NCBI GenBank assembly: GCA_934233745.1
Contig: CAKQGN010000001.1
Coordinates: forward strand, 322,621 to 386,620
DNA from: an uncultured Clostridia bacterium
GTDB lineage: Bacteria; Bacillota; Clostridia; Christensenellales; CAG-917
Length of the DNA stretch: 64,000 bases
Direction of reading: 5' to 3'
Shown here: in pieces, positions 5,064-25,940 of the stretch
How positions within the stretch are numbered: the stretch's first letter is position 1
Layout of the letters: every line of letters begins with the position of its first letter
Program-made: the position numbers and the translations under genes
The notes under the pieces: model-generated
Databases searched by the model: none
Told to the model about the DNA's origin: nothing
Seen by the model: only the letters and a program-made list of their open reading frames with translations

Positions 5064-5099
5064 AAACGGATTGCTCTCTTATAGGGCAATCCGTTTTTA
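5064..5099 (+). terminator. Terminator-like hairpin between the vWA and PP2C genes
   Basis: AAACGGATTGC - 11-nt loop - GCAATCCGTTT followed by TTTAT, located between the stop at 4990 and ATG 5118. Confidence 0.5.
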
Positions 5100-5117
5100 T
5101 TCCTAGGGGGAAAAGAG

Positions 5118-8317: not shown

Positions 8318-8468
8318 CGCGGTTAATCCGACGGAAAAAGAGCATATGGAAAGTACAAGGGTATTTCCCCGATAAAACACAGTTATTCAAATTGGTAAAA
8401 TCACAGATAAGAGAGATTGACTCTGTCGCTATCCGCAAGGATGGGTCAATAATTATTCGAGGTCAAAA

Positions 8469-9377
8469 ATGGAGAACACTAAGTATTTGAAAGCACAATG
8501 TTCGCTTACCCGGAAGCATTTTTGTTTGGAAATCAAACAATTCGGTAGAGATTGGAAAGTCGTAAACTTTTTGGGAATATCCGCCGACGAGGCGAAAGTT
8601 ATGACCTCCGAAATAAGACAGGCAAAGTTCGAGACAAATTCGACTCTTTTGCCGTGCACCAAGTGCAAAAGTAGAGTTGTGGGAGGTTGTGCCTGCAAGA
8701 CAAAAGGATGCCAAGGCGGCGCTGATTTTCAGTGTATATACTGTAAGAATATGAAAATCGATTATTCGGATGCGGCGCGAGTGTCTTGCTACAAAGATGG
8801 CGACACAATCAAATTGTCACAGGGACAAGAAATAAAGATTAGATACAAAAATAAGCCTTTAACGAGAATTGTCGTCGGACTGGGGTGGGATCCCGTAGGC
8901 GGTTTTAGGGGTGCAAATATGGACATTGACTCGTCGGTGTTCGTGATGGGGTCGAGAGGGTTTGACATCGTGTATTTCGGACAATTGAAACATCCGAGCG
9001 GATGCGTGGTGCATCACGGAGACAATCTAACGGGTGAAAATAGAGGCTTCAATGTCGATGACGAAAACATAGATGTTTTTTTGGATAAGGTGCCTCAGGA
9101 CAGGAATCAACTTGTGTTTGTGTTGAACATATACAAGTGTGTGGAAAGAAATCAGAATTTGTCGAAAGTGAAGAATATGTACATAAAACTTTACGATCCT
9201 ATTTCACACACTCCGCTTGTTGAATATAGAGTAAACGAGAACTTGAACAACGGCACGGCGTTGATTATCGGTGTGGCAACAAGGGTTGGCGGCGAATGGG
9301 TTTTCAAAGCCGTCGGCAGAGGCAGTAATGCGACATCGATTTCAGAACTGGCGGTTGAATACGGCAAATTGTACTGA
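8469..9377 (+). CDS. Zn-ribbon + TerD-domain protein
   Basis: N-terminal Cys cluster CTKCKSRVVGGCACKTKGCQGGADFQCIYC. The TerD core reads IVVGLGWDP...NMDIDSSVFVM...VYFGQLKHPSGCVVHHGDNLTGE...DDENIDVFLDKVP. Confidence 0.85.
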   Translation: MENTKYLKAQCSLTRKHFCLEIKQFGRDWKVVNFLGISADEAKVMTSEIRQAKFETNSTLLPCTKCKSRVVGGCACKTKGCQGGADFQCIYCKNMKIDYSDAARVSCYKDGDTIKLSQGQEIKIRYKNKPLTRIVVGLGWDPVGGFRGANMDIDSSVFVMGSRGFDIVYFGQLKHPSGCVVHHGDNLTGENRGFNVDDENIDVFLDKVPQDRNQLVFVLNIYKCVERNQNLSKVKNMYIKLYDPISHTPLVEYRVNENLNNGTALIIGVATRVGGEWVFKAVGRGSNATSISELAVEYGKLY

Positions 9378-9397
9378 TAAAGTGTGGAATATGAAAG

Positions 9398-11461
9398 ATG
9401 GCATGGGTTTGTAAAAATTGCAACTCGGATAATGACGATTCGCTTACCGCTTGCGAGCTGTGCGGATGTACGGAGAAACTTGTGATAGAAAGTCACAAGT
9501 CTGTTTTGATGCGCAAGCAGGCTCTTGAGTTGGATGTTGTATCGGGCGTGGTTATCGTTCCTTCTGCATATAATATAATCGGCGCACATGCTTTTGAGGG
9601 AAACAATAATATAAAAACGGTTGTTTTGCATGATGAAGTCATAAGCATTTATAAGCAAGCTTTTAAAGACTGTGTCAACCTTGAAAAAGTCGTGTGTGAG
9701 GGCATGCTTGACAGCATAGGCCCGGAGGCGTTTAGAAATTGCAGGGCATTAAAAATAAAACCTGTGGCAAAATCTGTTGATAAGAGTGCGTTTGAAACGG
9801 ATTCATTATTTATGGAAGAAGGGTCGGTTCCATCGCGTACAAGTACTATGACTCCCTCTATCACGACCACTCCGATTCGTTCCGGCGTCACAAGTTATGA
9901 AGATACAACTAGACATACATCGTATCATTTTAACCTTGAAACACTTGTCAAGACACTGGCTGTCGTGATACCGATAATCGCTTTTATTGTCGGGCAAGCA
10001 TTGCAGTACTATTGGCTTTTTATTAAGAATAAAATATATTTTCTTGATATGTTTTTTTCAGCTGTTCCCGCAACGGTATTATATGTTTCGTCTGCGTTTT
10101 GCCTTGTTTCGACCATTCACGTTATAATTAGGTCTTGGAAACTTGCCGATGACGACGAATTGGGCTTGGGAGCGTTGTATTTTAGTTTTTCATCGTTGTT
10201 TTTAGGCGGTATAGCCCCTGTTGCCGGTTATGTCGGGATTATTGTTACTTCGGCGCTCTCATGGCTGTGTGTTACATTCAACGAAGAAAAAGTACCGGCT
10301 TTGTTGCTTTTCCTTTCTTGTGCGGTAGGATTAACATTTATGTGGCTAAGCTATAACAGGGACGTCAATATCTTTTTATTTACAAAATTCATGCGATTGA
10401 TAGACGCAGACCCTTTTCGCGTGATGATTTACTTAAGCGTTGCGACAGGAGTAAGTATCGTTGCGTCCGCAGTGATGGCGGTTGGGATGGCTTATTTCCC
10501 GAATCCGACGGTAGGATACGGTTCACTGGGTGTGTTTTGCAGTTTGATGGCAATTGTGCCGGCGATTGCAATCCCCGGATTGTTAATATACGCTATCGTA
10601 TTTGCCATTATATCAAAAAACGATGACGAACATGTCGCAAAAGTAGGTGCGATAGCCGTTGTTGTCGTATTTTTAATAACGGTTGGCGGATTGGGTGTTT
10701 TCTGTGGAGTGGGAAAGCAGAAAACGTACACACTTTCGGATTACGAGATAGTGAGCATAAGTTCTTTTCAGGACTTTCGACAATATCTGAATGAAGAAGT
10801 CATAGCGATGAATATCTCAAAGGTTTCGGAGTCCGATGTCGCGACTATTATTACCGGAGAAAACTGTAAGACATTGGTGCTTGTGTCCGATCATAATAAG
10901 AAATTTTCACTTACAATCAAGACATCTGCAAAGAAGATTATTCTGAGTGATGTGAATATCAACTACGGCGGACTTGTGTTGGATGCAGAAAAAGTCGAAA
11001 TCAAACTGTACGGACGTAACAGCATAATGGGAGAGACAGGAAAGTCCGGCACGACAGGAAAAGACGGCGAGGACGGAAAAGCGGCTATAATCGGGAAAGA
11101 TATTACTTTTACGGGGAAAGGTCGTATTACGCTCATTGCAGGAAACGGCGGAACGGGCGGTGTCGGCGAAAAGGGCTCTAAAGGATCTTTCACAGGAAGC
11201 GGTGGAAAAGGCGGTACGGGTGGAAAAGGCGGCAACTCAGGTTATACCATAGACTGTGAATATGTCGAGGCAAATTATTTCTCAGGGAAAATAACACTAA
11301 AGAAAGGCTATGCCGGAAGCGGAGGCAACGGAGGTCCTGGAGGGGACGGAGGATTCTTTGGATGGAGCGGTCAAAAGGGAGATAGAGGTGAGAGAGGAGA
11401 GGTTTCCGATTATTGCTCGGGGAAAATCACAATCGATGATAAACGCATTAAAAAAGCGTGA
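9398..11461 (+). CDS. Zn-ribbon / BspA-type LRR / polytopic membrane / Gly-rich collagen-like-tail protein
   Basis: WVCKNCNSDNDDSLTACELCG is a RanBP2-like ribbon. VPSAYNIIGAHAFEGNNNIKTVVLHDEVISIYKQAFKDCVNLEKV is LRR_5-like. About 8 hydrophobic helices follow (aa ~190-450). The C-terminus reads GKSGTTGKDGEDGK...GGTGGVGEKGSKG...GQKGDRGERGE. Confidence 0.7.
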   Translation: MAWVCKNCNSDNDDSLTACELCGCTEKLVIESHKSVLMRKQALELDVVSGVVIVPSAYNIIGAHAFEGNNNIKTVVLHDEVISIYKQAFKDCVNLEKVVCEGMLDSIGPEAFRNCRALKIKPVAKSVDKSAFETDSLFMEEGSVPSRTSTMTPSITTTPIRSGVTSYEDTTRHTSYHFNLETLVKTLAVVIPIIAFIVGQALQYYWLFIKNKIYFLDMFFSAVPATVLYVSSAFCLVSTIHVIIRSWKLADDDELGLGALYFSFSSLFLGGIAPVAGYVGIIVTSALSWLCVTFNEEKVPALLLFLSCAVGLTFMWLSYNRDVNIFLFTKFMRLIDADPFRVMIYLSVATGVSIVASAVMAVGMAYFPNPTVGYGSLGVFCSLMAIVPAIAIPGLLIYAIVFAIISKNDDEHVAKVGAIAVVVVFLITVGGLGVFCGVGKQKTYTLSDYEIVSISSFQDFRQYLNEEVIAMNISKVSESDVATIITGENCKTLVLVSDHNKKFSLTIKTSAKKIILSDVNINYGGLVLDAEKVEIKLYGRNSIMGETGKSGTTGKDGEDGKAAIIGKDITFTGKGRITLIAGNGGTGGVGEKGSKGSFTGSGGKGGTGGKGGNSGYTIDCEYVEANYFSGKITLKKGYAGSGGNGGPGGDGGFFGWSGQKGDRGERGEVSDYCSGKITIDDKRIKKA

Positions 11462-11547
11462 ATGTAACTGTAAATACAGTATGAATGATATTAAAAGCCT
11501 TAAAAGCACCGATGCACGGTTATGAACATTGTTAAGGAGAGTAGGTT

Positions 11548-14500
11548 ATGAACTACAACCACAAACTAGACGAGAGCGCAAAGTATTTGAAGGTTGTTAC
11601 ACGCGGGGGCTCTACGCCGAAGGGAAAGCGAAGAGTGTATTTCACTTGCCATCCGAAGGATTTTGACAAGTACTTCCAAAAGGTGTGCGACGATATCTTC
11701 AAAACGCAGGATTGCGCGATTTATTATACGGCAGATATGTCCGCGCCGATACCCGAACAATACGTGGAGTCGGACTTGGGACAGATGAATTTGTTTGTTG
11801 TACCGATAACGTATGCTCTTCTTACGGAGAAAAACAGGGCAATGGATTTCGATCTCGCATACGCTATGCGAGACGACGTGTCTATCCCCATTCTTCCGCT
11901 GATGATGGAAAATGGTATAGATTTCTTTTATGAGAAAAAGTTTGGCAATCGTCAATATTTCAGCCCCTATTCACAAGATTTGTCAGCAATCGGTTACGAG
12001 GAAAAGCTGAAAAAATATCTGTCGTCAGTTTTGCTCGACGACGGAACGATAGAGCGTATTCGCAAGGCTTTTGACGCTTATATTTTCCTCAGTTACCGCA
12101 AAAAAGACCGAAACTTTGCAAATGAACTGATGAAACAAATCCACCAAAATCCATTGTATAGAGATATTGCGATTTGGTATGACGAGTTTTTGACACCCGG
12201 TGAAGATTTTGAGGAAAACATCCATAAAGCATTTGACATAAGCAAGCTGTTCGCATTGCTTGTAACGCCGAACCTTGTGAATGAAAAAAACTACGTGCAA
12301 ACCACGGAATACCCGCTTGCAAGAAAAAGCGGAAAGAAAATTTTGCCGGCAGAGTGGGTGGATACCGACAAAAAACTGCTGAAAGAGCAATATCCCGACA
12401 TTCCGCAATGCGTAAACGGAAAAGACCAAGCGGAGCTGGATAAGGGAATTGCCGACGCACTTAAGACAATAGCATTGCAATCCAACGATAACGATCCCGA
12501 GCATTGTTATCTCATAGGTCTTGCATATCTCGACGGAATAGACGTTGAGATAAACGTCCCGTACGCCATTGAGCTTATCACGCGTGCCGCCGAAAAAGAT
12601 TATCCCGATGCTATGGATAAGCTGTTTTTTATGTATTACAATGGCGATCGTGTAAAAGTAGATTACACAGAGGCATTAAAATGGTCAGAAAAACAATATG
12701 GGTTTTATCTGCGTACAAAGGGGGAAGATGCACTTGAGACGCTTGCCACGTTAAACAATATCGGCATGGTTTACAACAGCATCGGGGAATACAACAAAGC
12801 GCAAGAAATAATGCAACAGGCATACGAACGTTTACGTATTGCATATGGCGAAAAACACAAAAAAACCATTAAGATTCTAAGCAATCTTGCGGTTGTATAT
12901 TTTTACCGCGGTGACTATGAGAAATCTGTAGAGCTTGGCGAAAAAGCCTATAGTATAAAATGTGAAGTGTCGGGCGCTTTGGAGCAGGATGCGATTATAA
13001 CATTAACAAATCTTGCTCACACATATAATTGTCTTGGAAATTATAAAAAAGCATTTGAATTAGGACAAAAGGCATATGAACAATTCCGCGAAACGCTAGG
13101 AGAGCAACATTATCATGCTGTAGTTGCGTTAAATAACTTGGCAATGGTATATTATACAACCGGAGATTTTAAAAAAGCGTTGGAATTGGCGTTGAAGGCA
13201 AATCAACAAAACAAAGAAGTGCTGGGAGAGGGGCACCCTGAAACATTTAGGGTATTAGGAAACGCTGCTATAATTTATAACAAACTTGGTGATTTCAATA
13301 ACGCACTGGAATTAAGCAAAAAAGCATATGGTCTTGCAAATGAAGTGTTTGGTGAAAAACATCCTGAAACAATTAAACAGTTGACGAACATCGCAGTCAC
13401 TTATATTAGCCTTGGAGATTATAGAAAAGCATTTGAGTTAAGTCAAAAGGCATATGACCTTGCTTGTGAAACGCTAGGAGAACAACATCCAAATACCATA
13501 CTTGCGTTAAATAACTTGGTAATGGTATATTATACAACCGGAGATTTTAAAAAAGCTCTAGAATTAAGCCAGAAAGCATACGATTTATATTGCGAAGAAT
13601 GTGGCGAAAAGCATCCCGATACTATCACTGCGCTAAACAATCTTGCCCAAACATACATGAAACTCGGAGAGCATCATAAAACACTTGAACTAAGTCAAAA
13701 AGTGTATGACTTAGATTGCGAAATACGCGGTGAGAAACACTTGGAAACCATAGTTGCGTTAAATAATCTTGCCTTAGCATATGGCCAACTTGGTGATTTC
13801 AATAAAGCACTTGAATTAATGTTGAAGGCATACAATCTTTGCTTTGAAGAATGTGGCAAGAAACATCCTAATACTATATTGACGTTACTCAATTCCGCAA
13901 AAGTATATTTGGAGCTTGGCGATTGTGCTAAGGCACTTGAACTAAGTCAAAAAGCGTACGACTTAGCTTGTGAAATACTCGGTGAGAAACACCCAAATAC
14001 TATCATGGCGCTAAATAGTCTTGCCATGGCTTATGTGCAGCTCGGAGATTATAATAAAGCACTTGAACTAAGTCAAAATGCATATGATTTATGTTGCGAA
14101 ATACTCGGTGAGAAAAACCCAGATACTATCATGGTGCTAAATAATCTTGCCCAAGCATATGATCAACACGGAGACTACAGTAAAGCACTCGAATTAATGC
14201 TGAATGTATATTATCTTAGCCGTGAAGCAAGCGGCAAGAGCCATCCGGATACTATACTGTTTTTATACAATCTTACTCAAGAATGTGTAGAGATTGGAAA
14301 TTATAAAAAAGCATTGAAGTTAGCTAAATATGTCTATGCCCTTAGAAAAAAGGCTTTTGGCACAAAACATCCAGATACGATTGATTCAATTGATCTTATT
14401 TCTGACATATATCACAATTTAGGGCGAGATAGGATTGAGTTGAAATTGGTGCGAAAAAAATATCTTTTATTGCGTGATGTTAGCGGCGAAAAGCATCCCG

Positions 14501-15186
14501 AAACAATTACTGCATTAGGTGAGCTTGCTTTATTGTATAGTAACATAGGGAAATTAAAAAAAGCACAAGAATTGAACATGCAGGCATATGCGCTTTCGTG
14601 TGAGGTGCTTGGCGAAAAGCACCCCGATACGCTTACGTCTCTAAATAATTTAGCATATGTATATGATGAAATAGGGAATTATGAAAAATCGGTAGAACTA
14701 AATGAACGATCATATGCTCTTTATCGTGAAGTCTATGGCGAAAAACACCCTGAAACGCTTACATCGTTGAGCAACCTTATTGCCACATATGGTAATGCCG
14801 GGAATTTTGAAAGGGTAATAGAACTAAATGAACAATCGTATGCACTTTGTCGTGAGGTGCTTGGTGAAGAACACCCGGATACACTTAAATCTTTAAGTAG
14901 TCTTGCAATTGCATATGGCTATATAGGAAATGATGAAAAATCATTGGAATTAAATAAACAAGCATACGTTCTTTATTGCAAGGTATTTGGTGAAGAACAT
15001 CCTGAAACGCTTACATCATTGAGTAATCTTGCCATCGCATATAGTAATCTTTGGGATGTTGAAAAAGCAATAGAACTTGGCGAGAGGGCATATGATCTAA
15101 GATGTAAGGTGTTAGGGAAAAAGCATCCTGACACACAAGAATCTCTAGCAAACTTATATATAATATACAGAAGATTCGAAGATTAG
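11548..15186 (+). CDS. Tandem TIR-like domains + Sel1 repeats + ~19 kinesin-light-chain-type 42-aa TPR repeats (1212 aa)
   Basis: RBS AAGGAG. The first TIR-like unit is RRVYFTCHPKDFDKYF...LFVVPITYALL. The second is AYIFLSYRKKDRNFANEL...IAIWYDEFLTPGEDFEENI...LFALLVTPNLV...TTEYPLA. Sel1-like segment: CYLIGLAYLDGIDVEINVPYAIELITRAAEKDYPDAMDKLFFMYYNGD. This is followed by the repeated unit LNNLAxxYxxxGDYxKALELxxKAYDLxxExLGEKHPDT. Confidence 0.8.
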   Translation: MNYNHKLDESAKYLKVVTRGGSTPKGKRRVYFTCHPKDFDKYFQKVCDDIFKTQDCAIYYTADMSAPIPEQYVESDLGQMNLFVVPITYALLTEKNRAMDFDLAYAMRDDVSIPILPLMMENGIDFFYEKKFGNRQYFSPYSQDLSAIGYEEKLKKYLSSVLLDDGTIERIRKAFDAYIFLSYRKKDRNFANELMKQIHQNPLYRDIAIWYDEFLTPGEDFEENIHKAFDISKLFALLVTPNLVNEKNYVQTTEYPLARKSGKKILPAEWVDTDKKLLKEQYPDIPQCVNGKDQAELDKGIADALKTIALQSNDNDPEHCYLIGLAYLDGIDVEINVPYAIELITRAAEKDYPDAMDKLFFMYYNGDRVKVDYTEALKWSEKQYGFYLRTKGEDALETLATLNNIGMVYNSIGEYNKAQEIMQQAYERLRIAYGEKHKKTIKILSNLAVVYFYRGDYEKSVELGEKAYSIKCEVSGALEQDAIITLTNLAHTYNCLGNYKKAFELGQKAYEQFRETLGEQHYHAVVALNNLAMVYYTTGDFKKALELALKANQQNKEVLGEGHPETFRVLGNAAIIYNKLGDFNNALELSKKAYGLANEVFGEKHPETIKQLTNIAVTYISLGDYRKAFELSQKAYDLACETLGEQHPNTILALNNLVMVYYTTGDFKKALELSQKAYDLYCEECGEKHPDTITALNNLAQTYMKLGEHHKTLELSQKVYDLDCEIRGEKHLETIVALNNLALAYGQLGDFNKALELMLKAYNLCFEECGKKHPNTILTLLNSAKVYLELGDCAKALELSQKAYDLACEILGEKHPNTIMALNSLAMAYVQLGDYNKALELSQNAYDLCCEILGEKNPDTIMVLNNLAQAYDQHGDYSKALELMLNVYYLSREASGKSHPDTILFLYNLTQECVEIGNYKKALKLAKYVYALRKKAFGTKHPDTIDSIDLISDIYHNLGRDRIELKLVRKKYLLLRDVSGEKHPETITALGELALLYSNIGKLKKAQELNMQAYALSCEVLGEKHPDTLTSLNNLAYVYDEIGNYEKSVELNERSYALYREVYGEKHPETLTSLSNLIATYGNAGNFERVIELNEQSYALCREVLGEEHPDTLKSLSSLAIAYGYIGNDEKSLELNKQAYVLYCKVFGEEHPETLTSLSNLAIAYSNLWDVEKAIELGERAYDLRCKVLGKKHPDTQESLANLYIIYRRFED
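12700..15180 (+). repeat. Intragenic tandem array of ~126-bp (42-codon) TPR-coding repeats, some pairs nearly identical at DNA level
   Basis: About 19 consecutive units. For example, 13126-13177 versus 13504-13555 has 1 mismatch in ~52 nt at an offset of 378 nt (3 units). Also, ~13940-14025 versus ~14066-14150 are highly similar. Confidence 0.8.
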
Positions 15187-15261
15187 AGAAAAGACGTATA
15201 AGCTCTTATAAATAGCGAAGTATAAAGCAGAAAAAGAACAAGAGATAAAGGAGGAAGGATT

Positions 15262-15810
15262 ATGGCAAAAGAGGGAAGGTCGCTTGGCGAGGAGTTGAAA
15301 GAGAGCCGTATTATCGTCGTGAGCGGATATATCGACTCGGACAAGGCGGCGACAATTATTTATCAATTGATGGATTACAATGCGAAAAGCGAAAAGGAAG
15401 ATATTCAGTTGTTTATCGGCTCGGGCGGCGGAAGTTACTTGGATATGATGGCGATTATCGATACGATGAACACGATAAAAGCTCCTATATCGGGGACGTG
15501 TATCGGTATGGCGGACGGGTATAGCGCATTGTTGCTTGCGTGCTGCACCAACGGAAAGAGATATGCGCTCAAGCATAGTCAGATTTCTTTCGAACAGCCG
15601 TACGGAGTGTTGCAATCGGGTGCCAATCAAGAGACGGAGATTGCAATCGAGGCAAGAGAAGTCAAACTCGAAAGAGAAATTTTTGAGAATATGCTTGCCC
15701 AAAAGACGAATACGGAATTTGACAAAATACACCGTGATTGCGAGGTCGGGGTGAGCTTAAGCGCACAACAGGCTTTGGAATACGGAATTGTCGATGAGAT
15801 ACTCGAGTGA
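15262..15810 (+). CDS. ClpP-fold protein lacking the catalytic triad (pseudo-protease ClpP paralog)
   Basis: By-eye alignment to E. coli ClpP. GQAASMGAFLL becomes GMADGYSALLL (Ser->Gly). VMIHQP becomes ISFEQP (His->Glu). ERDRFLSA becomes EVGVSLSA (Asp->Gly). The N-terminal axial-loop region is absent. RBS AAGGAGGAAGG. Confidence 0.8.
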   Translation: MAKEGRSLGEELKESRIIVVSGYIDSDKAATIIYQLMDYNAKSEKEDIQLFIGSGGGSYLDMMAIIDTMNTIKAPISGTCIGMADGYSALLLACCTNGKRYALKHSQISFEQPYGVLQSGANQETEIAIEAREVKLEREIFENMLAQKTNTEFDKIHRDCEVGVSLSAQQALEYGIVDEILE

Positions 15811-15826
15811 AAAGGAGGAGAACGAT

Positions 15827-16351
15827 ATGAAAAACAATAACCCTCGTATAGTGTTGTTAAACGGGGCGGTGGATGAAGAATCCGCAATGAAAGTTATTTT
15901 GCAGTTGCTCGAGCTTAACAGACAGGATGAAAACAAAGAGATAAGTCTGTATATCAATTCAAACGGCGGTAGCATAGTTTACGGATTGGCAATCTACGAT
16001 ACGATAAAACTCATCAAAGCGCCTGTTTCGACCGTTTGTTGCGGTATGGCGGCATCTATGGGGGCGTTCTTGCTTTCGTGCGGAGAGAGGGGGAAAAGAT
16101 ATGCTTTGCCGCATAGCAGAATACTCATTCATCAACCCCTCATGCAGATAAGACAAGGAGTGTCTCGCCCTCAAACCGCTATGCAACGTATAGCGGAAGA
16201 TATGGCGAAATCCCGAAAGGAGTTGGAGTCCGTTATGGCAGACAATACGGGTAAATCTCTCGAAACGCTGCATGCGGATTGCGAGAGGGATAAATGGATG
16301 AGTGCAAAAGAAGCCTTAGAATATGGAATTATAGATAAAATATTGGAATAA
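15827..16351 (+). CDS. clpP: ClpP-family serine protease (triad intact, N-terminally short)
   Basis: GMAASMGAFLL (Ser), RILIHQP (His) and CERDKWMSA (Asp). I prefer ATG 15827 with RBS AAAGGAGGAG over the track start 15788, which lies inside the upstream gene. The protein begins at RIVLLNG, so it lacks the canonical N-terminal ~20 aa. Confidence 0.85.
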   Translation: MKNNNPRIVLLNGAVDEESAMKVILQLLELNRQDENKEISLYINSNGGSIVYGLAIYDTIKLIKAPVSTVCCGMAASMGAFLLSCGERGKRYALPHSRILIHQPLMQIRQGVSRPQTAMQRIAEDMAKSRKELESVMADNTGKSLETLHADCERDKWMSAKEALEYGIIDKILE

Positions 16352-16428
16352 TCTACGGTTATTGATAAAAAGCCAAGGTTAGACATACGAAATTTAAAAA
16401 ATAACAAAAGAAAAAGGAGACAATTGAT

Positions 16429-19053
16429 ATGTTGGGAGCAGTTTCTTGGAATTTGATAGGCGGAGCGTTTACCGGCTTTATAACGTTAATAGTTTTTTAT
16501 GTCGGTATTATGTGGGCGTATATTGCATCGAGAAAAAAGTTTTCGGGTGCAAAGTATGCTGTCGAGCTGTTTTATATTGCGTTGGTGGTTTTGTTTGGCT
16601 TCGGCGTAAAATGCGCTATTTTTGTGGCAAACAGACCCGACACGTTCGATGACGGACTTGCCGCATTCTTCTATGCCATTTATTCGAGTATCGGCGGGCT
16701 CGAGTTCGAAGGCCTGGCGGACGCGGGTGAGGTTGGTACGGCATTGTTACAATGGCTGTATTCGGGAAGTTCGGTGCTTGCCGGACTTGTGTTCTTCAGC
16801 ATCATCCTTACAAAAATCAGCTACGAGATGTACAGCGGAATTTTGCTGTTTTTCTTGCGTATGAGGTTAAAGACAAGCGTGAATACCGACATCTATTTAT
16901 TTACGTCCGTCACGCAGGATTCGTTGCTTTTGGCAAACAGCATCAACGAGAAGAGACTCGGTGATAAGAATAATTACAAAAAAGCACTAAAGGCATATAA
17001 AGAGGACAAAGGAAACGGTAAAGTCGCTCAAAAACCCGAGAAAGCCAGAAATAGTAAGGTGATTTTTGCCGGCGACGATATCGGATCTTTCGATCGTAAA
17101 AATCCGCTGCATAGAGAAATTATGTCCAACGGGTATATGTTTTGGTCTTACTCAAAGAAAACGGGCGGTAATGGACCGTCTATGCTCAAAAGGCTTGGAT
17201 TGTATATCGACAATGTGTTTTTTGAAATAGAATCGCCAAAAGACAAGCAAAAGCAAAACGAGCAAGAGAAAAAAGACAGAGAAAACAAAAAAATCGTTGT
17301 AAAAGCCAAGGCAAAAAATAGCAGGATACATGTTTTTGCAATGCACAACGACGAGGCTTTCAGTGGCGAAGAGACTGTGAATGCAGAAACCGTTTTTGAC
17401 GAAATCGAGACTGTCGTGCGAGAAATCGTGGAGTATAATAAGAAACCTGTTTTCGTCGATTACTACATACTTACGAACACTGATATAAACTACACGTATT
17501 ACGACAATTACAAAAAGAAGTGCATAGAAAGTGCCTTAGAATCCGCAAAAACGAGGACTCACCGTAAAAATAATGTGAAAGATCCTGTTCTTGTAAATGA
17601 CGTAATCGAAGTGCGCAACGAAAGGGGAAGGGTTTGCGAAAGTGAGTTCGCTTTGCATATTATCAACGAGTCCGATATAACGTCAAAACTGTTTGTGGAG
17701 GCTAGAAATAAGGATTGGGATGCGAATTTATTGATTCAGGATACGGGCGAATCGACTTACAAAGTTATGGTTGTCGGCTTTGGTGCGACGGGACAACGGA
17801 CTATGTTGCAATCCTATATCATGTCGACGAAAATAGACAATAAACAACCCGATTATCACATGCCTACGCAATTCAGAGCCGACGTATTCGATAAGGACGC
17901 AGACTCTGTGTGTGGGATTTTTGAATTGCAACATCCTCTTATCGTCTGTGTTAACGATAAGGATGCAAAGGACAATCCTGATAAACTCGAAACACAAATT
18001 GAAAAGAAACGCAGAGAAAGAATCGATATGACATATCATAGCGTAGTCGGCAAGACAATGAATCTTTCTTCGGATTTCAAAAAAGATCGCGCGGCGACAA
18101 TCGAGGACATCGAAAATCAAATGAAATTGCCTGTGGTTGTTATGCACAATGCGTCGTGTTTCGGCTCGGATTATCTCGATTATTTGGATTCGAGAACAGG
18201 CGCAGATTCGCGCTCGCAGGAATATAACCTTATAATAGTTGCTCTCGGGAAAGACGAGGATAATATCAAGATGGCGAATGCTTTGCTTGCGGATATCAAG
18301 CACGAACTCAACAATCTGCGCAATGCAACGAGACCTGCAAAACTGCAAACAATTGCAATCAATTTACTTAACAAGAGAAACCGCGATAGAATCAACTGGA
18401 GCAAAGAGGATAACGAAAGATATGGAAATTTGAAAGTGATTATCTTCGGAAGTAGGGATGATATTTACTCGTATAGACAAATTATAGACGAAACAGAGTG
18501 CATGGAATATCATCACGCATATTATCTTCTCGATACCAACAAAATACCAAACCAAAGCAAACCAATGAAATCATATTATCTTAACAGAGAAACACCGTAC
18601 GTGGGGTGGGGATATTTTGAGTTGTTGTGTGGCTTTTACGATGCTGTAAGATGTGAAGATAAAGAGAATTTAAGATTGGAATGGAAAGACGTTCCGCTTG
18701 TGGAAAGAGAATCGAACAGATCTGCATTGTTATTTAAGAATGTTATGGCGGCGATGAAGTCGTTCTATTGTACGAGTTATTCTTATAGCGAGTTGCGCTT
18801 GTTGGTAGAACTCGAACATGATAGATGGAATAGGTCGTATATCGCCAACGGCTGGACTTATAATCAAAAAATGCCGAAAAAACAAGAAGATGAGTCCGAT
18901 GAAGCTTTTAAAAAACGTCGCAAGAAAGCAAAGAATGACGGTAAAGATAGATGTGAACACGATTGCCTGTTGCCGTATTCTATGTTGGAAGAAAAGTACA
19001 CGGATTATGATATAGCGAATGTCGCCTGTGTGTTTGAAAAAAAGCAACACTAA
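16429..19053 (+). CDS. Membrane protein: channel-like N-terminal TM/pore-loop region + TrkA-N/RCK-like Rossmann domain(s) + C-terminal RyR domain
   Basis: The first ~150 aa contain 3-4 TM helices with a pore-loop-like segment, FFYAIYSSIGGLEFEG, between them. Rossmann signature: YKVMVVGFGATGQRTM...RADVFDKD...LIIVALGKDEDNIKMAN. C-terminal RyR-domain signature: LVELEHDRWNRSYIANGWTY...CEHDCLLPYSMLEEKYTDYDIANV. RBS AAGGAG. Confidence 0.7.
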   Translation: MLGAVSWNLIGGAFTGFITLIVFYVGIMWAYIASRKKFSGAKYAVELFYIALVVLFGFGVKCAIFVANRPDTFDDGLAAFFYAIYSSIGGLEFEGLADAGEVGTALLQWLYSGSSVLAGLVFFSIILTKISYEMYSGILLFFLRMRLKTSVNTDIYLFTSVTQDSLLLANSINEKRLGDKNNYKKALKAYKEDKGNGKVAQKPEKARNSKVIFAGDDIGSFDRKNPLHREIMSNGYMFWSYSKKTGGNGPSMLKRLGLYIDNVFFEIESPKDKQKQNEQEKKDRENKKIVVKAKAKNSRIHVFAMHNDEAFSGEETVNAETVFDEIETVVREIVEYNKKPVFVDYYILTNTDINYTYYDNYKKKCIESALESAKTRTHRKNNVKDPVLVNDVIEVRNERGRVCESEFALHIINESDITSKLFVEARNKDWDANLLIQDTGESTYKVMVVGFGATGQRTMLQSYIMSTKIDNKQPDYHMPTQFRADVFDKDADSVCGIFELQHPLIVCVNDKDAKDNPDKLETQIEKKRRERIDMTYHSVVGKTMNLSSDFKKDRAATIEDIENQMKLPVVVMHNASCFGSDYLDYLDSRTGADSRSQEYNLIIVALGKDEDNIKMANALLADIKHELNNLRNATRPAKLQTIAINLLNKRNRDRINWSKEDNERYGNLKVIIFGSRDDIYSYRQIIDETECMEYHHAYYLLDTNKIPNQSKPMKSYYLNRETPYVGWGYFELLCGFYDAVRCEDKENLRLEWKDVPLVERESNRSALLFKNVMAAMKSFYCTSYSYSELRLLVELEHDRWNRSYIANGWTYNQKMPKKQEDESDEAFKKRRKKAKNDGKDRCEHDCLLPYSMLEEKYTDYDIANVACVFEKKQH

Positions 19054-19068
19054 TGTGAGAGGTGCAAA

Positions 19069-20154
19069 ATGAACGAGAGGCTGTTGATAAGAACGCTCAG
19101 AAAAATTATGAAAACAAAATCACTCAATCTCGAAAGCGTGTCGGCAATCGGAAGTTGCTCGTATGCGGAGGCTTTCGATGTTATGCGATATTTGCTTGAA
19201 AAAGGCATTATCAAAGAAAGCAATGACGGGGAGTTTGCCGTTACGGAAGATAATGAACAAATCGAAGAGTTGCGCAGAGCGAACGGGGACTGGAAAAAAG
19301 AGTTCTCCAACAGCGAACTTAAAAGCATCCTGTATGAAATAGATATGCAAGCGTTTAACATCATCAGAATGTTGGAAGATCTCGATGGGAAGACCATTGA
19401 GGAACTTCGCACCGCATCAAAAGACGCCGCAATCGACGTGGATGCCACGCTTGCATATCTGCAATCGCGAGGGCTGGTTGTGCCGGACGGAGATACGTAT
19501 CGGGGCATAATAGGCGAAGAGAACTACATCAAAATGGTGAATATGTTCAAAAAAGACAAAGCCGAAATGCAACGGAAGATCGATGCGGAAGGCGAACGTC
19601 AGGCAAAGGCTGCTACGGCAAGAAAAGCCGAGGAAGATGAAAAGGAAAGGGAACTTTCCGAAATTATTGCCAATGCGAGAGCGTTGCAAGCGGAAGAGCA
19701 GAAAAAGGAAGAATCTGCCGATGAAACGCCATTGGCGGAAGATACCGAAGTGAGCGCAATTATGTCGCAAGTCGATAGGTTTAGGAAAAAACTCGGTCAA
19801 AAAGAAGAGAATGTTGCGGAGATACCGGTGTGGTTGAATTCAATCCACACCACCGTAATGGTGAAAGCGGATTTGTCGGATACACCGATTGCGGTTTTGC
19901 AAAAAATATATTTGCATTACAACAAAAGAGGCATTGTTAAAAAGTTTGGTGAAAACAACTCGCTTTGCAGTTTTAACGGGAACGTGGCGGCGTTGGATAA
20001 AAAGAAAAGCGTGTTCCAACTTGTGTTTAAGAATGAACTTGTTACGCTCAACTGGGATTTGCCGATAAAAGAGCAGATCAGCGCAAAGCACAGCAGGACG
20101 ATTGGTGAAGATGGCGAACTTGCAGTGTTTGTTTTTGTAGCAATGCAAAATTGA
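19069..20154 (+). CDS. Hypothetical protein with N-terminal winged-helix-like repeats, central charged coiled coil and unknown C-terminal domain
   Basis: 361 aa, starting 15 nt after the preceding stop, RBS GAGAGG. Two wHTH-like segments: YAEAFDVMRYLLEKGIIKESNDGEFAV and AIDVDATLAYLQSRGLVVPDGDTY. I recognised no catalytic motif. Confidence 0.5.
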   Translation: MNERLLIRTLRKIMKTKSLNLESVSAIGSCSYAEAFDVMRYLLEKGIIKESNDGEFAVTEDNEQIEELRRANGDWKKEFSNSELKSILYEIDMQAFNIIRMLEDLDGKTIEELRTASKDAAIDVDATLAYLQSRGLVVPDGDTYRGIIGEENYIKMVNMFKKDKAEMQRKIDAEGERQAKAATARKAEEDEKERELSEIIANARALQAEEQKKEESADETPLAEDTEVSAIMSQVDRFRKKLGQKEENVAEIPVWLNSIHTTVMVKADLSDTPIAVLQKIYLHYNKRGIVKKFGENNSLCSFNGNVAALDKKKSVFQLVFKNELVTLNWDLPIKEQISAKHSRTIGEDGELAVFVFVAMQN

Positions 20155-20306
20155 GAAAAGGCTCATTATAAGTCACAAAACAAAAGTTACAGCTAGTTAT
20201 GTGCAAACAAATTAGAGACTAAAAATGTTGGCGATCATTTTTGAGTTGCGATAATGGCAATATTTTTATACGAAAATAACGTTCACAGTATATCGGGTGT
20301 TATGGC

Positions 20307-20335
20307 TTGCAATATGTACCGAAATATAGTAGAAT
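20307..20335 (+). promoter_or_regulatory. Sigma-70-type promoter (TTGCAA-17 nt-TAGAAT) for the PHP/TIR-NACHT/MBL operon
   Basis: TTGCAA at 20307-20312, 17-nt spacer, TAGAAT at 20330-20335. This leaves a ~70-nt leader before ATG 20413. Confidence 0.45.
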
Positions 20336-20412
20336 ATAACCATTGTTTACGAGAGATGGAAAGTCTCTGCCTGCTCGGGAGAAACGGCACTCGTTTACGG
20401 GGGGGGGGAAGC

Positions 20413-21306
20413 ATGATTGATTTGCATATGCACTCTGTTAATTCAGATGGAACATGCACAACAGAAGAACTTTTACAGCAGTTGGTAGAACTCAATGCTG
20501 AAATAATTTCCTTTACAGACCATGACAGCGTGGGCTGCTATTTTGATTTGAACGATATTTATATTAAACATAATATTCCAATAAAAATTGTACATGGAGT
20601 CGAGTTGAGTTTTTTAGAAGATGGTGTTTTAAGGGATATGTTAGGTTATGGCATCGATGTAAAAATAATAATTAATTGGCTTAATACACGATATTCTAAG
20701 GAGTACAGAATAGCGAAGCAACGAAAGATATTAACAAAATTCAAGGAAATATGTAGAAATAAAGGGATGAAGTTTTCGAACGATCTTGATATTTGCACCG
20801 GAAATAAAAGCGAAGCATTTGTTGTCATGTATAACGAACTAATTAATTATCCCACAAATCGTGAGGCTTTTCCATTTATTACAAACAACACAGCCTTTTA
20901 TTGGCAATACTTTGCAAATAAGTCTAGCGAATACTATGTTGATGAAACGGATGGACTACCTACAATGAAAGATGTTATTGACATAATACATAAATCGGGA
21001 GGTTATGCATTTTTGGCACATCCTTGTGCTTACAAATTAAATAGAACAGAAGTATCTGCGTTTATAGATATTGCCATAAAAAATGGTATAAATGGAATTG
21101 AAGTAAAACACTCATCAAATAAAGATGACGATGTTCCTTTCCTAAGACAAATCGCAGAAATTAACAATCTGTATATTAGTGGGGGCAGTGATTTTCATGG
21201 TTCAACAAAACCAGGATTAAATCTTATCGTTGGGTACAATAATATGTTAGTAACAAAGGATGATATTGGAAACTGGATAAATAGTGTGGAGTCAACCATA
21301 TTTTGA
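20413..21306 (+). CDS. PHP-domain (polymerase/histidinol-phosphatase family) metal-dependent phosphoesterase
   Basis: MIDLHMHSVNSDGTCTTEELL...ISFTDHDSV...HGVELS...AHP...GGSDFHG are the PHP His/Asp motifs. I prefer ATG 20413 (G-rich RBS GGGGGGGGAAGC) to the track start 20254, which overlaps the predicted promoter. Confidence 0.75.
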   Translation: MIDLHMHSVNSDGTCTTEELLQQLVELNAEIISFTDHDSVGCYFDLNDIYIKHNIPIKIVHGVELSFLEDGVLRDMLGYGIDVKIIINWLNTRYSKEYRIAKQRKILTKFKEICRNKGMKFSNDLDICTGNKSEAFVVMYNELINYPTNREAFPFITNNTAFYWQYFANKSSEYYVDETDGLPTMKDVIDIIHKSGGYAFLAHPCAYKLNRTEVSAFIDIAIKNGINGIEVKHSSNKDDDVPFLRQIAEINNLYISGGSDFHGSTKPGLNLIVGYNNMLVTKDDIGNWINSVESTIF

Positions 21307-21314
21307 GGTGAGAT

Positions 21315-24095
21315 ATGAATATTTTTATTAGCTATGGACACGACGGCTTTTCCTCTCTTGCTGAAAGGTTAAAGCATGATTTAGATAGTATGGGTCATAA
21401 CGTTTGGTTTGACAAAGAAAAGCTGAAAGGCTCGGCGGAATGGGAAACTGAAATTGAAAAAAATATTATTTCATCCGATTGGTTAATACTTTTGATGACT
21501 AATCATTCGGTAAGACGTCCCGATGGAGTTTGTTTGGATGAGGTAAGTGTGGCTAGATATATGAACAAAAAGATTTTGCCTATAATGATTCAGAATGTGA
21601 TGCCGCCGTTTTGTATTGCAAGAATTCAATGGCTTGATATGCAGAACAATTGCTGTGATGAAAATGGAGTAATTAATGAACTTAAATATGCCGAGAAACT
21701 GGAACAAATCCTTCAAATAGTTGAGGGTATATTTCAAATAAATCACGAGGGTAGCCAATCCAATTTATTGAGATCTCTTTCTCCGCTGGATAATGATGTT
21801 TACATTGAAAGTATTAAACAAAAATTTTATGGAAGGAATTGGCTGTTTGATAAATATGACAATTGGGTGACATCACACTCATCGCCGAGAGCCTTTATGA
21901 TTACAGGACAAGCTGGAATTGGAAAAACCGCATTCGTTGTGGCGCTTAGTTCAATGCGTCCAGAAATAGTAGGGATACATTTTTGCAAATATAATGATAA
22001 TGATAGATCTAACCCCAAAAGGGCTCTTATGTCGATAGCATATCATTTATCGACTCAAATACCAGAGTATTCTGCACAATTAATGTTATTAAACGATCTA
22101 AACAGATTGGAAGAAAAAAGCGTTACAAGATTATTTGAATATTTATTTATAGAACCACTAAACAAGATACCGTCTAGAGACAAAACATCAGTAATTATTA
22201 TTGATGCATTAGATGAGGCTGCAAAAGAGACCAAAAATGAATTGCTCGATATTATTGCAATGGAGTTTGATAAAACACCAAGTTGGCTAAAATTGTTGGT
22301 CACAAGCAGACCAGAAAATCAGATTTTGCGGAAAATGGCTAAGTATAATCCGATTGTTATTGAAAAGAACAAGGAATGCGATGACGATATCTTGGAATTT
22401 TTAACGAAAGAACTGGTTGATGTAAACTGTTTAGACAAAGAACAAAAAATATTTGAACTTTCAAAAAAGTGCCAAGGCAGCTTTTTATATGCAAAAGAAG
22501 TCATGCGTAATATAAAAGATAAACATTATGATTTATCAAATGTGGATAGTTTTCCAAAAGGGTTGGCGGGCATATATGAGTCATATTTTAATAGGCTATT
22601 TTCAGGTGATATGCAGTTTTATAAAACTATGATAAGGCCCGTTCTTGAAGTGTTAGTGGCTAGTTTTGAGCCCTTAACATTGGAGTTGGTTCAAAAAATA
22701 TCAATGGTTGATGAATATGAATTTGACGATGTAATTGAAGCCATTAGTTCCTTATTTCCATTGAGAAACAACACAGCGACGGCGATGCATAAGAGTTTAT
22801 ATGACTGGATAATTGATGCCGAAAAGGCAGGTCAATATAGGGTATCTCTGAAACGCGGACATAAAAAACTGTCGGATTACTATTTTCAAATGAATAAGAA
22901 CGAGAAATTAACATCTCAAGTAATAAAATACACAACGATGCACTGCATTTTTGCCGAAGAGTATAATTTTGCCTATGAGTTATTAATAAACAATTCATTC
23001 CAAAATACTCGAATTAAATCTCTTGGATTGGATACTGCGCTAAGGGAGTATTTTTCAGAGATATATAAGCTAAAAGAAAAAGAGCCTACGTTGTGTTTAA
23101 ATGTATTGCGTAGTGAATGTTTTTTGTCAATTATCAAAAATAATCGAGCATTTCTATATAATTCCGGATTATTTTTCGAAATAAAAGAATGTGGCTTTGA
23201 TCAAGTTGCAGAAACCATTATTTCAAATTATTCGGATGCTGAATTGATAGTATCAATTGCTTACTACTTCTATATTACCGAAAGGTTTAAGCAAGCGGAA
23301 TTATTGTTTTCTAGGCTAATTGATTTTCAATTTTCCACATTTCCAGAACGACTTAAAGCAGGCGTTTTTAATACTCTTGCTTTATGCAATAGAAAGTATG
23401 CGGATTTTGACAAAGCAAAGGATTATTTTTTGCTTGCAGAGAGTACTGCCGTCCACTCATCTGATTATGAAAGGTCAATTGCTGTTGTAAATTTAGGGAA
23501 AATCGCATATCATCAACTTGATTGGGAGTTGGCTAAAGAATATAGCGAAAAAGCTATTAAAATACTGCGACGCGAATACGACAATTGCGAATTAGATGAT
23601 GATGTTAATTCGTTGAGATTATTTGTTGCGGAATATCATCGATTATTTGCTGAAGCAGTAATTTGGCATGGAGATGTGGAATTGGCTAAAAAACACCTTT
23701 CTGAAGCAGCAAAACTGTACTCAATTAACAAAGCCCGAGACAGATACTATGTGCGATATCTTTATACTGGAATATTGGTCGATATTATTGGCAAACGAAA
23801 TATTGATCTTCGTCGTATTGATGAGGTGAAATCCTTAGCATCCAGCAAATACGACAAGTCGCAAATTTTATACTATGAAGGGCTTTACTTTTACTTAAAA
23901 GATGATGTTGTTGGAAGTAAAGAAAAGTTGCGAGAGGCATTGGTTTATACTGAAGATATAAATGCATCCCTTGAGGTCGGAGAAATAACAATGTTGCTCG
24001 ATTTGTGCGGAGAACACATTAAAACAAACAATAACAATCGTTATATAGAAAAATGGTGCAAATATGTAAAGAACTTTATTGAGGAATTAAAATGA
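21315..24095 (+). CDS. TIR - NACHT/STAND NTPase - TPR-like sensor protein (bacterial NLR-like / Avs-like)
   Basis: N-terminal TIR: MNIFISYGHDGFSSLAERL...VWFDKEKLKGSAEWETEI...LILLMTNHSVRRPDGVCLDEVSVA. P-loop: FMITGQAGIGKTAFVVAL. Walker B: VIIIDALDEA. The C-terminal ~400 aa are helical-repeat/TPR-like. Confidence 0.85.
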   Translation: MNIFISYGHDGFSSLAERLKHDLDSMGHNVWFDKEKLKGSAEWETEIEKNIISSDWLILLMTNHSVRRPDGVCLDEVSVARYMNKKILPIMIQNVMPPFCIARIQWLDMQNNCCDENGVINELKYAEKLEQILQIVEGIFQINHEGSQSNLLRSLSPLDNDVYIESIKQKFYGRNWLFDKYDNWVTSHSSPRAFMITGQAGIGKTAFVVALSSMRPEIVGIHFCKYNDNDRSNPKRALMSIAYHLSTQIPEYSAQLMLLNDLNRLEEKSVTRLFEYLFIEPLNKIPSRDKTSVIIIDALDEAAKETKNELLDIIAMEFDKTPSWLKLLVTSRPENQILRKMAKYNPIVIEKNKECDDDILEFLTKELVDVNCLDKEQKIFELSKKCQGSFLYAKEVMRNIKDKHYDLSNVDSFPKGLAGIYESYFNRLFSGDMQFYKTMIRPVLEVLVASFEPLTLELVQKISMVDEYEFDDVIEAISSLFPLRNNTATAMHKSLYDWIIDAEKAGQYRVSLKRGHKKLSDYYFQMNKNEKLTSQVIKYTTMHCIFAEEYNFAYELLINNSFQNTRIKSLGLDTALREYFSEIYKLKEKEPTLCLNVLRSECFLSIIKNNRAFLYNSGLFFEIKECGFDQVAETIISNYSDAELIVSIAYYFYITERFKQAELLFSRLIDFQFSTFPERLKAGVFNTLALCNRKYADFDKAKDYFLLAESTAVHSSDYERSIAVVNLGKIAYHQLDWELAKEYSEKAIKILRREYDNCELDDDVNSLRLFVAEYHRLFAEAVIWHGDVELAKKHLSEAAKLYSINKARDRYYVRYLYTGILVDIIGKRNIDLRRIDEVKSLASSKYDKSQILYYEGLYFYLKDDVVGSKEKLREALVYTEDINASLEVGEITMLLDLCGEHIKTNNNNRYIEKWCKYVKNFIEELK

Positions 24096-25830: not shown

Positions 25831-25940
25831 AAAAGAATTTTTGCGCAACACACGAGAGGTAAAATATTAAAACTTTGACAATGTCCCGCAGATGGTACGT
25901 TCGATTGGATAAGATAAAAAAAATTATACAGGAGATTGTC

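Follow-up and report, generated by a model that had tools for sequence, protein, structure and literature searches.

A conserved, undescribed ClpR-ClpP cassette with a membrane RyR-domain protein in a defence island of an uncultured Clostridia bacterium

Positions 11548-20154 of a 64,000-nucleotide stretch of contig CAKQGN010000001.1 from an uncultured Clostridia bacterium (hereafter the window, meaning the whole 64 kb) hold five genes, g1 to g5, which are real, tightly packed and uncharacterised. A reading made from the sequence alone had taken all five as one TIR-based defence system. Here we present the gene and domain structure of the locus, its recurrence in related genomes and a weighing of what it may do. 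Genes g2 to g5 are a conserved, undescribed cassette in a defence island, and the real unit differs from, and exceeds, the one proposed earlier: what recurs is ClpR-ClpP-g4-g5, accompanied either by a Sel1 protein together with a VirD4-like ATPase or by a paralogue of g4. The proposed check, whether the five-gene neighbourhood recurs elsewhere, comes out positively for g2-g5 but not for g1, which is a swappable TIR sensor and not a core cassette gene.

Genes of the locus and their domains

The features of the locus are the following (aa, amino acids; nt, nucleotides).

11548-15186, forward strand: g1, open reading frame of 1212 aa, TIR-Sel1-TPR protein
15262-15810, forward strand: g2, open reading frame of 182 aa, ClpR
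15827-16351, forward strand: g3, ClpP, 174 aa counted from the ATG at 15827
16429-19053, forward strand: g4, open reading frame of 874 aa, membrane-Rossmann-RyR protein
About 18781-19038, forward strand: RyR repeat of g4 (aa ~785-870), with H797, W800, H844 and D861
19069-20154, forward strand: g5, open reading frame of 361 aa

The gaps between the five genes are 75, 16, 77 and 15 nt, and a GGAG-type Shine-Dalgarno (SD) sequence lies 6-10 nt before each start, in agreement with the sequence-only reading, which had described five genes on one strand with these gaps and an SD sequence each. The start of g3 was set at ATG 15827 (the mechanically called frame opens at TTG 15788) because an SD sequence precedes that ATG and because the resulting length agrees with that of the homologues (174-176 aa). 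No terminator-like hairpin was found in the intergenic gaps of 11461-20254 by the terminator scan; since promoter and terminator scans were overall at chance level, the bounds of the transcription unit or operon are not set by them.

The proposal of a ClpP-like pair, one member dead and one intact, is borne out by Pfam and by alignment of the catalytic triad. Both proteins match CLP_protease (g2, E 5e-42, 144 bits; g3, E 8e-62, 209 bits; Pfam cutoff 20.2), and both score under the NCBIfam equivalog cutoffs. The triad of g3 is intact (GMAASMG / IHQP / ERDKW). The corresponding segments of g2 (GMADGYS / FEQP / EVGVS) are without Ser, His and Asp and have G, E and G at the triad positions; across g2 and all 11 aligned relatives these positions read G / E, S or D / G. 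Because the triad is lost in g2 and in every aligned relative, g2 is predicted to be a pseudo-protease. The ClpR family comprises 23 clusters of ~181 aa with identities of 48-92%, separated by a clear gap from canonical ClpP (at most 41%), and the inactive protein is under purifying selection, with motifs such as NQQTEIAIEA conserved across the 23 clusters. A scan of metagenomes with the ClpR profile yielded mostly canonical ClpP, and only the loci numbered L022 and L023 fell into the ClpR family (loci of other lineages are given by such numbers throughout). According to the alignment, some 20-25 N-terminal axial-loop residues are missing in all family members; g3 begins at canonical residue ~25 and g2 is without the hairpin. 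A search of the literature on anti-phage systems combining ClpP and TIR, and on ClpP in conflict systems, found nothing relevant.

The g4 protein consists of a membrane domain, two alpha/beta Rossmann-like domains, a variable linker and a single RyR (R12-type) repeat, in this order. The N-terminal membrane domain (aa 1-150) has a conserved GGLxFEG loop between hydrophobic helices, which lie within aa 4-134. The Rossmann-like part carries a conserved nucleotide-binding-type motif (GFGATG, aa 450-455) together with the acidic residue D488. Regarding the RyR repeat, the single sequence scores 19.7 bits, below the Pfam cutoff of 27.4, and the family profile matches the solved RyR R12 domains with an E of 6e-8. 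Residues H797, W800, H844 and D861 align with H75, W78, H100 and D117 of the phage protein RyDEP, with equal spacing save for one basic loop insertion of ~22 aa between W800 and H844. This H/W/H/D tetrad is 94-98% conserved among 117 diverse members of the g4 family. According to two independent preprints of 2026, dimeric RyR-domain proteins of phages bind or cleave 2'cADPR, 3'cADPR and cADPR (cADPR, cyclic ADP-ribose), the residues used by RyDEP being H75, W78, H100 and D117, a tetrad that binds or cleaves 2'/3'-cADPR; the role of cellular RyR domains was left open (PMC13232231; 10.64898/2026.06.04.730250). In two relatives of g4 (P0131 and P0138), the RyR repeat is followed by a C-terminal metallopeptidase of the M20/M28 type, and three others (P0179, P0184 and P0206) have an extension of ~440 aa that resembles a second, degenerate Rossmann and RyR-like module.

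The g5 protein comprises a pair of putative winged-helix units, a long helix rich in charge and, at the C-terminus, a small alpha/beta domain. The earlier reading called it a winged helix-turn-helix (wHTH) protein, to which the signals point weakly (TrmB, 25.9 bits in the L014 homologue; a PDB profile match with an E of 0.0035). The AlphaFold2 (AF2) model, built from an alignment of seven sequences, was poor, with a predicted local distance difference test score (pLDDT) of 53 and a predicted template modelling score of 0.32.

For g1, Pfam gave TIR_2 at aa 179-272 (E 7e-10), a Sel1 match (E 3.5e-12) and 16-17 TPR_10/TPR_12 stretches (E 1e-144 to 1e-167). The TPR array spans aa ~390-1212, or ~19 units of 42 aa, and is seen in the DNA as tandem repeats of 126 bp. 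Glu254 aligns with the conserved TIR Glu of five other TIR domains from related loci, which by sequence would place it at the catalytic position. The earlier domain calls stand for TIR_2, Sel1 and the ~19 TPR units, as they do for the ClpP-like pair and for the Rossmann GxGxxG motif and C-terminal RyR repeat of g4. A first TIR domain in g1 was not found: aa 1-165 gave no Pfam match and showed a weak, position-consistent similarity to the second TIR (BLAST E 0.46), which leaves the tandem arrangement unproven. An NCBIfam match of g1 to the "FxSxx-COOH system TPR" family was rejected, as it consists of repeats only (four stretches inside the TPR array). The BcTir/Tpr preprint, as far as its accessible part goes, describes another, two-gene system.

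Regarding known defence systems, an HMM search against PADLOC-DB v2.0 gave no match for g2-g5 or for the g4 paralogue, and only weak mad8/HerA matches for the VirD4-like ATPase. The earlier statement that no named defence system has this gene content is in line with this database, which holds no model for g2-g5.

Recurrence of the cassette and of its TIR neighbours

Homologues of g4 were collected by an indexed search (11 clusters) and by an exhaustive profile search (196 clusters at E<=1e-30), and the neighbourhoods of 16 g4 lineages and 11 ClpR lineages were mapped by tblastn. The g2-g5 cassette recurs in about 11-16 lineages of uncultured Clostridia. The order ClpR-ClpP-g4-g5 was seen in the window, L007, L009, L018, L020 and L102; in L105 the g5 position is taken by a 288-aa gene whose homology to g5 was not established, L001 is without g5, L022 ends after g4, and L023 has the ClpP pair only. 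A g4 homologue follows ClpR-ClpP in eight of the 11 ClpR lineages, and in at least six of these a g5-like gene comes next. Homologues of g5 were found after g4 in L002, L007, L009, L011, L018, L020 and L102, and after ClpP in L014.

Seen from g4, either the ClpP pair or a paralogue of g4 lies directly upstream in 15 of the 16 lineages. Eight lineages have g4 without the pair, and in seven of them a protein of 710-830 aa precedes it, with a membrane N-terminus, a Rossmann motif and an EHxRW RyR motif. Its distant relationship to g4 was recovered by hhalign (probability 97%, E 9e-11); the profile of the paralogue alone gave no match to RyR structures, so that its RyR call rests on the profile-profile match to g4. 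The notion that paralogue and ClpP pair are mutually exclusive partners was rejected, since L009 and L102 have both. In L009, the interval between the LRR (leucine-rich repeat) gene and ClpR (5052-8752) holds a 401-aa HAD-family hydrolase and the g4 paralogue, here 827 aa long and weakly matching a CofC-type nucleotidyltransferase.

The genes on either side of g1-g5 in the window are the following.

20-1798, reverse strand: soluble VirD4/TraG-like P-loop ATPase, whose C-terminal end lies beyond the window start
1810-2727, reverse strand: Sel1-repeat protein of ~302 aa, always paired with the VirD4-like ATPase
3777-4262, forward strand: YbjN/CesT-like protein of 161 aa (YbjN 6e-4, CesT_Tir_1 9e-4, both below cutoff)
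4322-11461, forward strand: accessory block with vWA, PP2C-like (586 aa), Ser/Thr kinase, TerD and BspA-type LRR proteins
20254-24847, forward strand: slot after g5, with PHP phosphoesterase, TIR-NACHT(NPHP3_N)-wHTH-TPR protein and MBL-fold hydrolase

In eight of the ten lineages in which the upstream side is visible, the ClpP pair has the genes for the VirD4-like ATPase and the Sel1 protein beside it, usually in divergent orientation. The ATPase of the window (Walker A GTTGSGKT) matches T4SS-DNA_transf (3.6e-31), TraG-D_C (2e-22) and TrwB_AAD_bind (2.7e-18), its best NCBIfam match being the CD1115 VirD4-like family (229 bits against a cutoff of 250), and it is 63-70% identical to the TraG-like genes beside ClpR-ClpP in L001, L014 and L018. 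A scan of its sequence found no hydrophobic helix and hence no membrane anchor, and neither a relaxase nor VirB4 nor other genes of a type IV secretion system (T4SS) were found near the ATPase in eight loci. The Sel1 protein is 48-64% identical to its partners in L001, L014 and L018; alone it gave no Pfam match, and its family profile matches solved Sel1-repeat proteins with an E of 6.6e-7. The 161-aa YbjN-like protein is 55% identical to a 163-aa gene product of L014, and its counterpart lies directly upstream of ClpR in L014-L017. In L103 (6210-17797), the Sel1 protein, the VirD4-like ATPase, ClpR and ClpP are encoded on one strand with gaps of 5-14 nt; next come a gene for a WYL-domain protein and an entire type II-A CRISPR-Cas system (cas9, cas1, cas2, csn2).

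The accessory block was found only in the window clade, which comprises the window, L002, L007 and L009, and is absent from L001, L014, L018, L020, L102, L103 and L105. Its Pfam matches are VWA_4 (4e-11), PP2C_2 (1e-3, below cutoff), Pkinase (2e-23), TerD (4e-45) and LRR_5 (1e-12), so that the triad of the TerY-P type (vWA, PP2C and Ser/Thr kinase) is present as adjacent genes, with weak PP2C and followed by TerD. The earlier description of the flanks, TerY-P upstream and TIR-NACHT downstream, agrees with these matches and with those of the slot after g5. Because the window has the ATPase/Sel1 pair and also the YbjN-like gene that adjoins ClpR elsewhere, the vWA/PP2C/kinase/TerD/LRR/TIR-TPR block at 4322-15186 is, judged by gene order, an insertion into the cassette. 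A strong terminator-like hairpin lies between the vWA and PP2C-like genes at 5064-5096 (14-bp stem, then T-rich sequence) and may cause the TerY-P-type triad to be transcribed as two separate units.

Within 10 kb of the cassette, TIR genes were found only in the window, L002, L007 and L009, i.e., in one clade. All four loci of this clade have TIR genes beside the cassette, in six architectures and at changing positions. In the slot after g5, the TIR differs from locus to locus: TIR-NACHT-TPR in the window, two TIR-methyltransferase genes in L007, TIR-TPR in L009 and TIR-NACHT-LRR in L002. The window and L007 are colinear, with 97.5% identity up to 12471 and 93% over 15249-20191; homology stops at 20191, and the TIR sets of the two loci differ. 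Segment 12472-15248 of the window (2.8 kb, the Sel1 and TPR part of g1) is missing in L007, the closest relative, where a 312-aa TIR protein remains. A TIR-TPR gene 35% identical to g1 sits downstream of g5 in L009, and in L002 both g1 and the two ClpP genes are absent, their place being taken by the g4 paralogue. The three genes at 20254-24847 form a tight set, with a gap of 8 nt and an overlap of 4 nt. The PHP phosphoesterase resembles RNase RNM or nucleoside-bisphosphate phosphatases, and a weak match links the MBL protein to a phosphodiesterase that degrades cyclic nucleotides. Signal synthesis or trimming could be the task of these two nucleotide hydrolases, which flank a TIR-STAND protein.

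The rate of change is uneven within the cassette. In L018, L020 and L105 it occupies one chromosomal site, between Lon/EngB and RuvCAB. When L018 was compared with L020, identity was 85-96% for the housekeeping flanks, 85-87% for ClpR/ClpP, 80% for the ATPase and 71% for the Sel1 protein, vs 49% for g4 and 32% for g5. The fast divergence of g4 and g5 shows signs of a conflict system. To cast g4 and g5 simply as effectors is uncertain, since both change at a much higher rate than the ClpP pair. In the window and L007, loci that are otherwise 93-98% identical, aa 1-700 of g4 are 90-100% identical, vs 48-71% for the linker and RyR repeat (aa 700-874). In the end of g4 (window 18529-19053, L007 12100-12607), the window is nearer to the more distant L002. 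The divergence looks like a recombination tract (local replacement) or like strong diversifying selection (rapid change), and it coincides with the very region on which a ligand or an inhibitor would act.

Possible function, rival explanations and known systems

We tentatively read g2-g5 as one conserved cassette with g4 as its hub, a possible arrangement in which g4 would be a membrane receptor for an ADP-ribose (ADPR) derivative or adenine nucleotide, the ligand would here come from neighbouring TIR proteins, and the output would pass through the membrane domain and/or ClpR/ClpP. The TPR or NACHT arms of the TIR proteins would sense infection, and their TIR domains (in g1 with Glu254 at the catalytic position) would turn NAD+ into an ADPR-derived signal. 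This signal would bind the single RyR repeat of g4 through H797, W800, H844 and D861, g4 forming a dimer with itself or, where present, with the RyR repeat of the paralogue; the paralogue, or the fused second Rossmann and RyR-like module of some relatives, could provide the other half of a two-fold RyR domain. The two Rossmann-like domains would relay the change to the pore-loop-like N-terminal membrane domain and/or to ClpR/ClpP, which, as a heteromer of inactive and active subunits without axial gating loops, would be a peptidase whose pore is ungated. Membrane or proteolytic damage would halt the infected cell, a putative anti-phage function. Proteolysis is included in the output because relatives of g4 are linked to peptidases (ClpP operons, M20/M28 fusions). 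In TIR-less genomes, the cassette would presumably answer another adenine-nucleotide ligand, together with the VirD4-like ATPase and the Sel1 protein (here at 20-2727). The earlier idea of signalling from TIR to the membrane protein gains a concrete molecular basis from the phage RyR domains that bind cADPR-type products of TIR enzymes.

Several results weigh against g4 as a receptor of TIR-made ligands. No TIR was found within 10 kb in L001, L004-6, L010-15, L018, L020, L022, L023, L102 and L103 with a small custom HMM set, from which divergent TIRs may escape, and the genes called in L105 include none; outside the window clade, the cassette stands without a TIR at this distance in all lineages sampled, or ~13 of the 16 g4 lineages. 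As the loci of the window clade are related (g4 at least 70% identical), their TIR association amounts to about one evolutionary observation. L014 is ClpR-ClpP-g5 without g4 and L103 has the ClpP pair without g4 and g5, so that the protease pair does not strictly need g4, and no recognisable defence genes were found near the cassette in L018, L020 and L105. Since RyR R12 domains bind ATP/ADP as well, the tetrad does not identify the ligand of g4. The proposed channel-RCK-RyR layout of g4 stands as to its Rossmann motif and RyR repeat but drew no support from any tool for its RCK and channel parts, identities that are plausible: Pfam gave no TrkA_N/RCK match even at E<=1 and no Ion_trans_2 or other channel match, the GGLxFEG loop carries no known filter signature, Foldseek of the whole AF2 model (pLDDT 64) against the PDB returned weak, generic NAD(P)-Rossmann matches (E >= 0.02), and the membrane region of the model has a pLDDT of 35-50. 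Known Thoeris systems keep TIR and effector adjacent, and here that coupling is seen in one clade only. The TIR link to the cassette is plausible and newly motivated, but confined to that clade.

An obligate five-gene Thoeris-like system, with the TIR-Sel1-TPR protein as sensor and signal maker and the ClpP pair and membrane protein as dedicated effectors, would fit the single strand, the short gaps, the SD sequence of each gene and the lack of an intergenic terminator, as well as the presence of both the TIR Glu and the RyR tetrad and of g1 homologues near the cassette in L007 and L009. It is very unlikely, given that the cassette does without a TIR in ~13 other lineages, that the TPR arm of g1 is missing in L007 and the g1 homologue of L009 lies downstream of g5, that L002 has the paralogue instead of g1 and the ClpP pair, and that the inserted block to which g1 belongs separates cassette genes found side by side in other loci. 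Hardly better placed, and quite unlikely in our view, is a lineage-specific housekeeping module of gut Clostridia, i.e., a nucleotide-regulated (KTN-like) transporter or channel with peptidases for peptide turnover or membrane-protein quality control and g5 as regulator, around which defence genes have gathered. Such a module would agree with the syntenic, vertically inherited position between Lon/EngB and RuvCAB in three genomes, with the housekeeping-like conservation of ClpR/ClpP, with the fusion of g4 relatives to M20/M28 exopeptidases, with the lack of PADLOC matches and with the absence of g4 relatives from the IMG/VR, phage and plasmid collections. It sits badly with g4 (49%) and g5 (32%) diverging far faster than the flanks, with the patchy, modular gene content (paralogue or ClpP pair, with or without g4 and g5), with defence cargo that both interrupts the cassette and flanks it on either side, with one locus lying beside CRISPR-Cas/WYL, and with a strictly conserved RyR ligand tetrad like that of immune-signal binders.

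The main rival, somewhat unlikely but more serious than these two, is a machine independent of TIR, in which a soluble VirD4/TraG-like hexameric ATPase and a Sel1 adaptor would recognise and unfold substrates (for instance, proteins of invading conjugative elements or phages, or g5) for a ClpR/ClpP chamber. In such a machine g4 and g5 would be fast-evolving specificity factors or sensors, the RyR repeat would read ATP/ADP/ADPR, and the nearby TIR genes would be independent single-gene NADase defences in the same hotspot. The flanking of the ClpP pair by the ATPase and Sel1 genes in eight of ten lineages, the window included, argues for it, as does their arrangement on the same strand with gaps of 5-14 nt in L103. 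The ATPase is without a membrane anchor and without other T4SS genes nearby, and its conservation between L018 and L020 (80%) is housekeeping-like, which speaks against a decaying remnant. The N-terminal loops by which canonical ClpP engages AAA+ partners are missing in both Clp subunits, and g4 and g5 are the fastest evolving genes, as this alternative would have it. We know, however, of no ClpP partnership with an ATPase of the FtsK/VirD4 class, and a literature search for a pairing of VirD4 and ClpP found none; in L102 and in loci of the paralogue type, g4 occurs while the ATPase is absent. The TIR-independent machine also leaves unexplained why several different TIRs lie against g4-g5 at every locus of the window clade, and why the RyR region diverges between near-identical loci.

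Among known systems, the locus would by analogy work most like a Thoeris system, yet it departs from the conserved TIR-effector coupling that defines these. Thoeris systems combine the TIR protein ThsB with an effector that a signal activates. A TIR with a conserved Glu adjoins a protein with a domain predicted to be able to bind TIR-made ADPR derivatives, and both candidate outputs, membrane damage and proteolysis, have precedents in type II (Macro-TM effector), type IV (caspase-like protease effector) and type X (ion-channel effector). Across genomes, co-occurrence of TIR and candidate effector in one operon was found in one clade only, and the cassette runs to between four and seven genes, one of them for an ATPase. 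No ClpP or RyR effector is mentioned in the accessible text and supplements of a survey of TIR systems from 2025, which covers types I-XI and a further 29 putative ones. Compared with phage RyDEP (a cADPR glycosidase), RyR Tad (a gcADPR sponge) and R12 domains (PF02026; PDB 3NRT, 6UHI), g4 belongs by profile to the same fold family (E 6e-8) and has the same four ligand or catalytic residues in a single repeat that would need a partner for a two-fold domain. The phage proteins are small, soluble anti-defence factors, whereas g4 is a host-encoded membrane protein of 874 aa with Rossmann-like domains and the ~22-aa basic insertion.

Heteromeric ClpP with inactive subunits occurs as ClpP3-ClpR of cyanobacteria and plastids and as ClpP1P2 of Mycobacterium and Listeria. 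The cassette likewise has tandem genes for an inactive and an active ClpP-fold protein, but its subunits are ~175-182 aa long without the axial loop region, and the neighbour is a VirD4-like ATPase or the membrane RyR protein, with no AAA+ gene near. With type IV coupling proteins (VirD4/TraG/TrwB; CD1115), the window ATPase shares three Pfam domains and the Walker A motif; it differs in having no N-terminal anchor and no T4SS genes nearby, in always accompanying the ClpP pair and a Sel1 protein, and in scoring 229 vs 250 bits. Prokaryotic K+ channels such as MthK and Ktr/Trk are gated through KTN/RCK domains. With these and with the eukaryotic RyR, g4 shares the build of a membrane protein with a possible pore loop, one or more cytoplasmic Rossmann domains and a RyR repeat, but outside the RyR repeat no sequence or fold match was detectable, and the loop (GGLxFEG) carries no K+ selectivity signature. 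Modulation of RyR channels by cADPR has been reported.

The family of g4 (about 200 clusters), with its full RyR tetrad and, in one clade, exchangeable TIR sensors around it, is a host-side candidate for the role of cellular RyR domains. If the link between TIR and g4 holds, TIR immunity would gain a receptor domain and an effector type that are both new, and the proposed evolutionary tie between bacterial TIR signalling and animal cADPR-ryanodine-receptor signalling would become directly testable. A bolder version, which we regard as unlikely, is that a pore-like membrane protein gated through its R12 RyR domain by a TIR-made cADPR-family signal is the prokaryotic counterpart of cADPR-ryanodine-receptor signalling, with loop-less ClpR/ClpP served by a soluble VirD4-like ATPase in place of an AAA+ unfoldase, and with the phage RyR sponges and glycosidases as captured host copies. 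TIR aside, the recurring dead/live, loop-less ClpP pair with a soluble VirD4-like ATPase and a Sel1 protein is an unreported pairing that could define a new class of regulated proteolysis.

Other genes of the defence island

The 64-kb window is a defence island, with TerY-P/TerD, TIR-NACHT, WYL-WCX, Cas4-like DUF2779, type I restriction-modification (RM) with AbiJ_NTD4, Fic, UvrD-HRDC helicase and Eco57I-like genes. At 25875-30101, genes for a WYL-WCX regulator (26847-27851) and a DUF2779/Cas4-like nuclease (28605-30101) accompany a fragment-like open reading frame of 299 aa, which has the NTPase and finger domains of DNA_pol3_alpha. The type I RM system (HsdM, HsdS and HsdR; 38041-46081) carries an AbiJ_NTD4 gene (40196-41098) between hsdM and hsdS and a gene for 232 aa before hsdR. 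The lowest G+C content of the window was found at 46001-48000 (27% vs ~40%), where open reading frames of 224 and 292 aa precede a Fic-domain gene (47779-49050); this segment may be a recent acquisition. On the reverse strand, 56449-63463 encodes a 1366-aa fusion of a ResIII helicase and an Eco57I-type methylase, together with genes for 253, 390 and 321 aa, of which those scanned gave no Pfam match, and gene orientation and GC skew both switch at ~56 kb.

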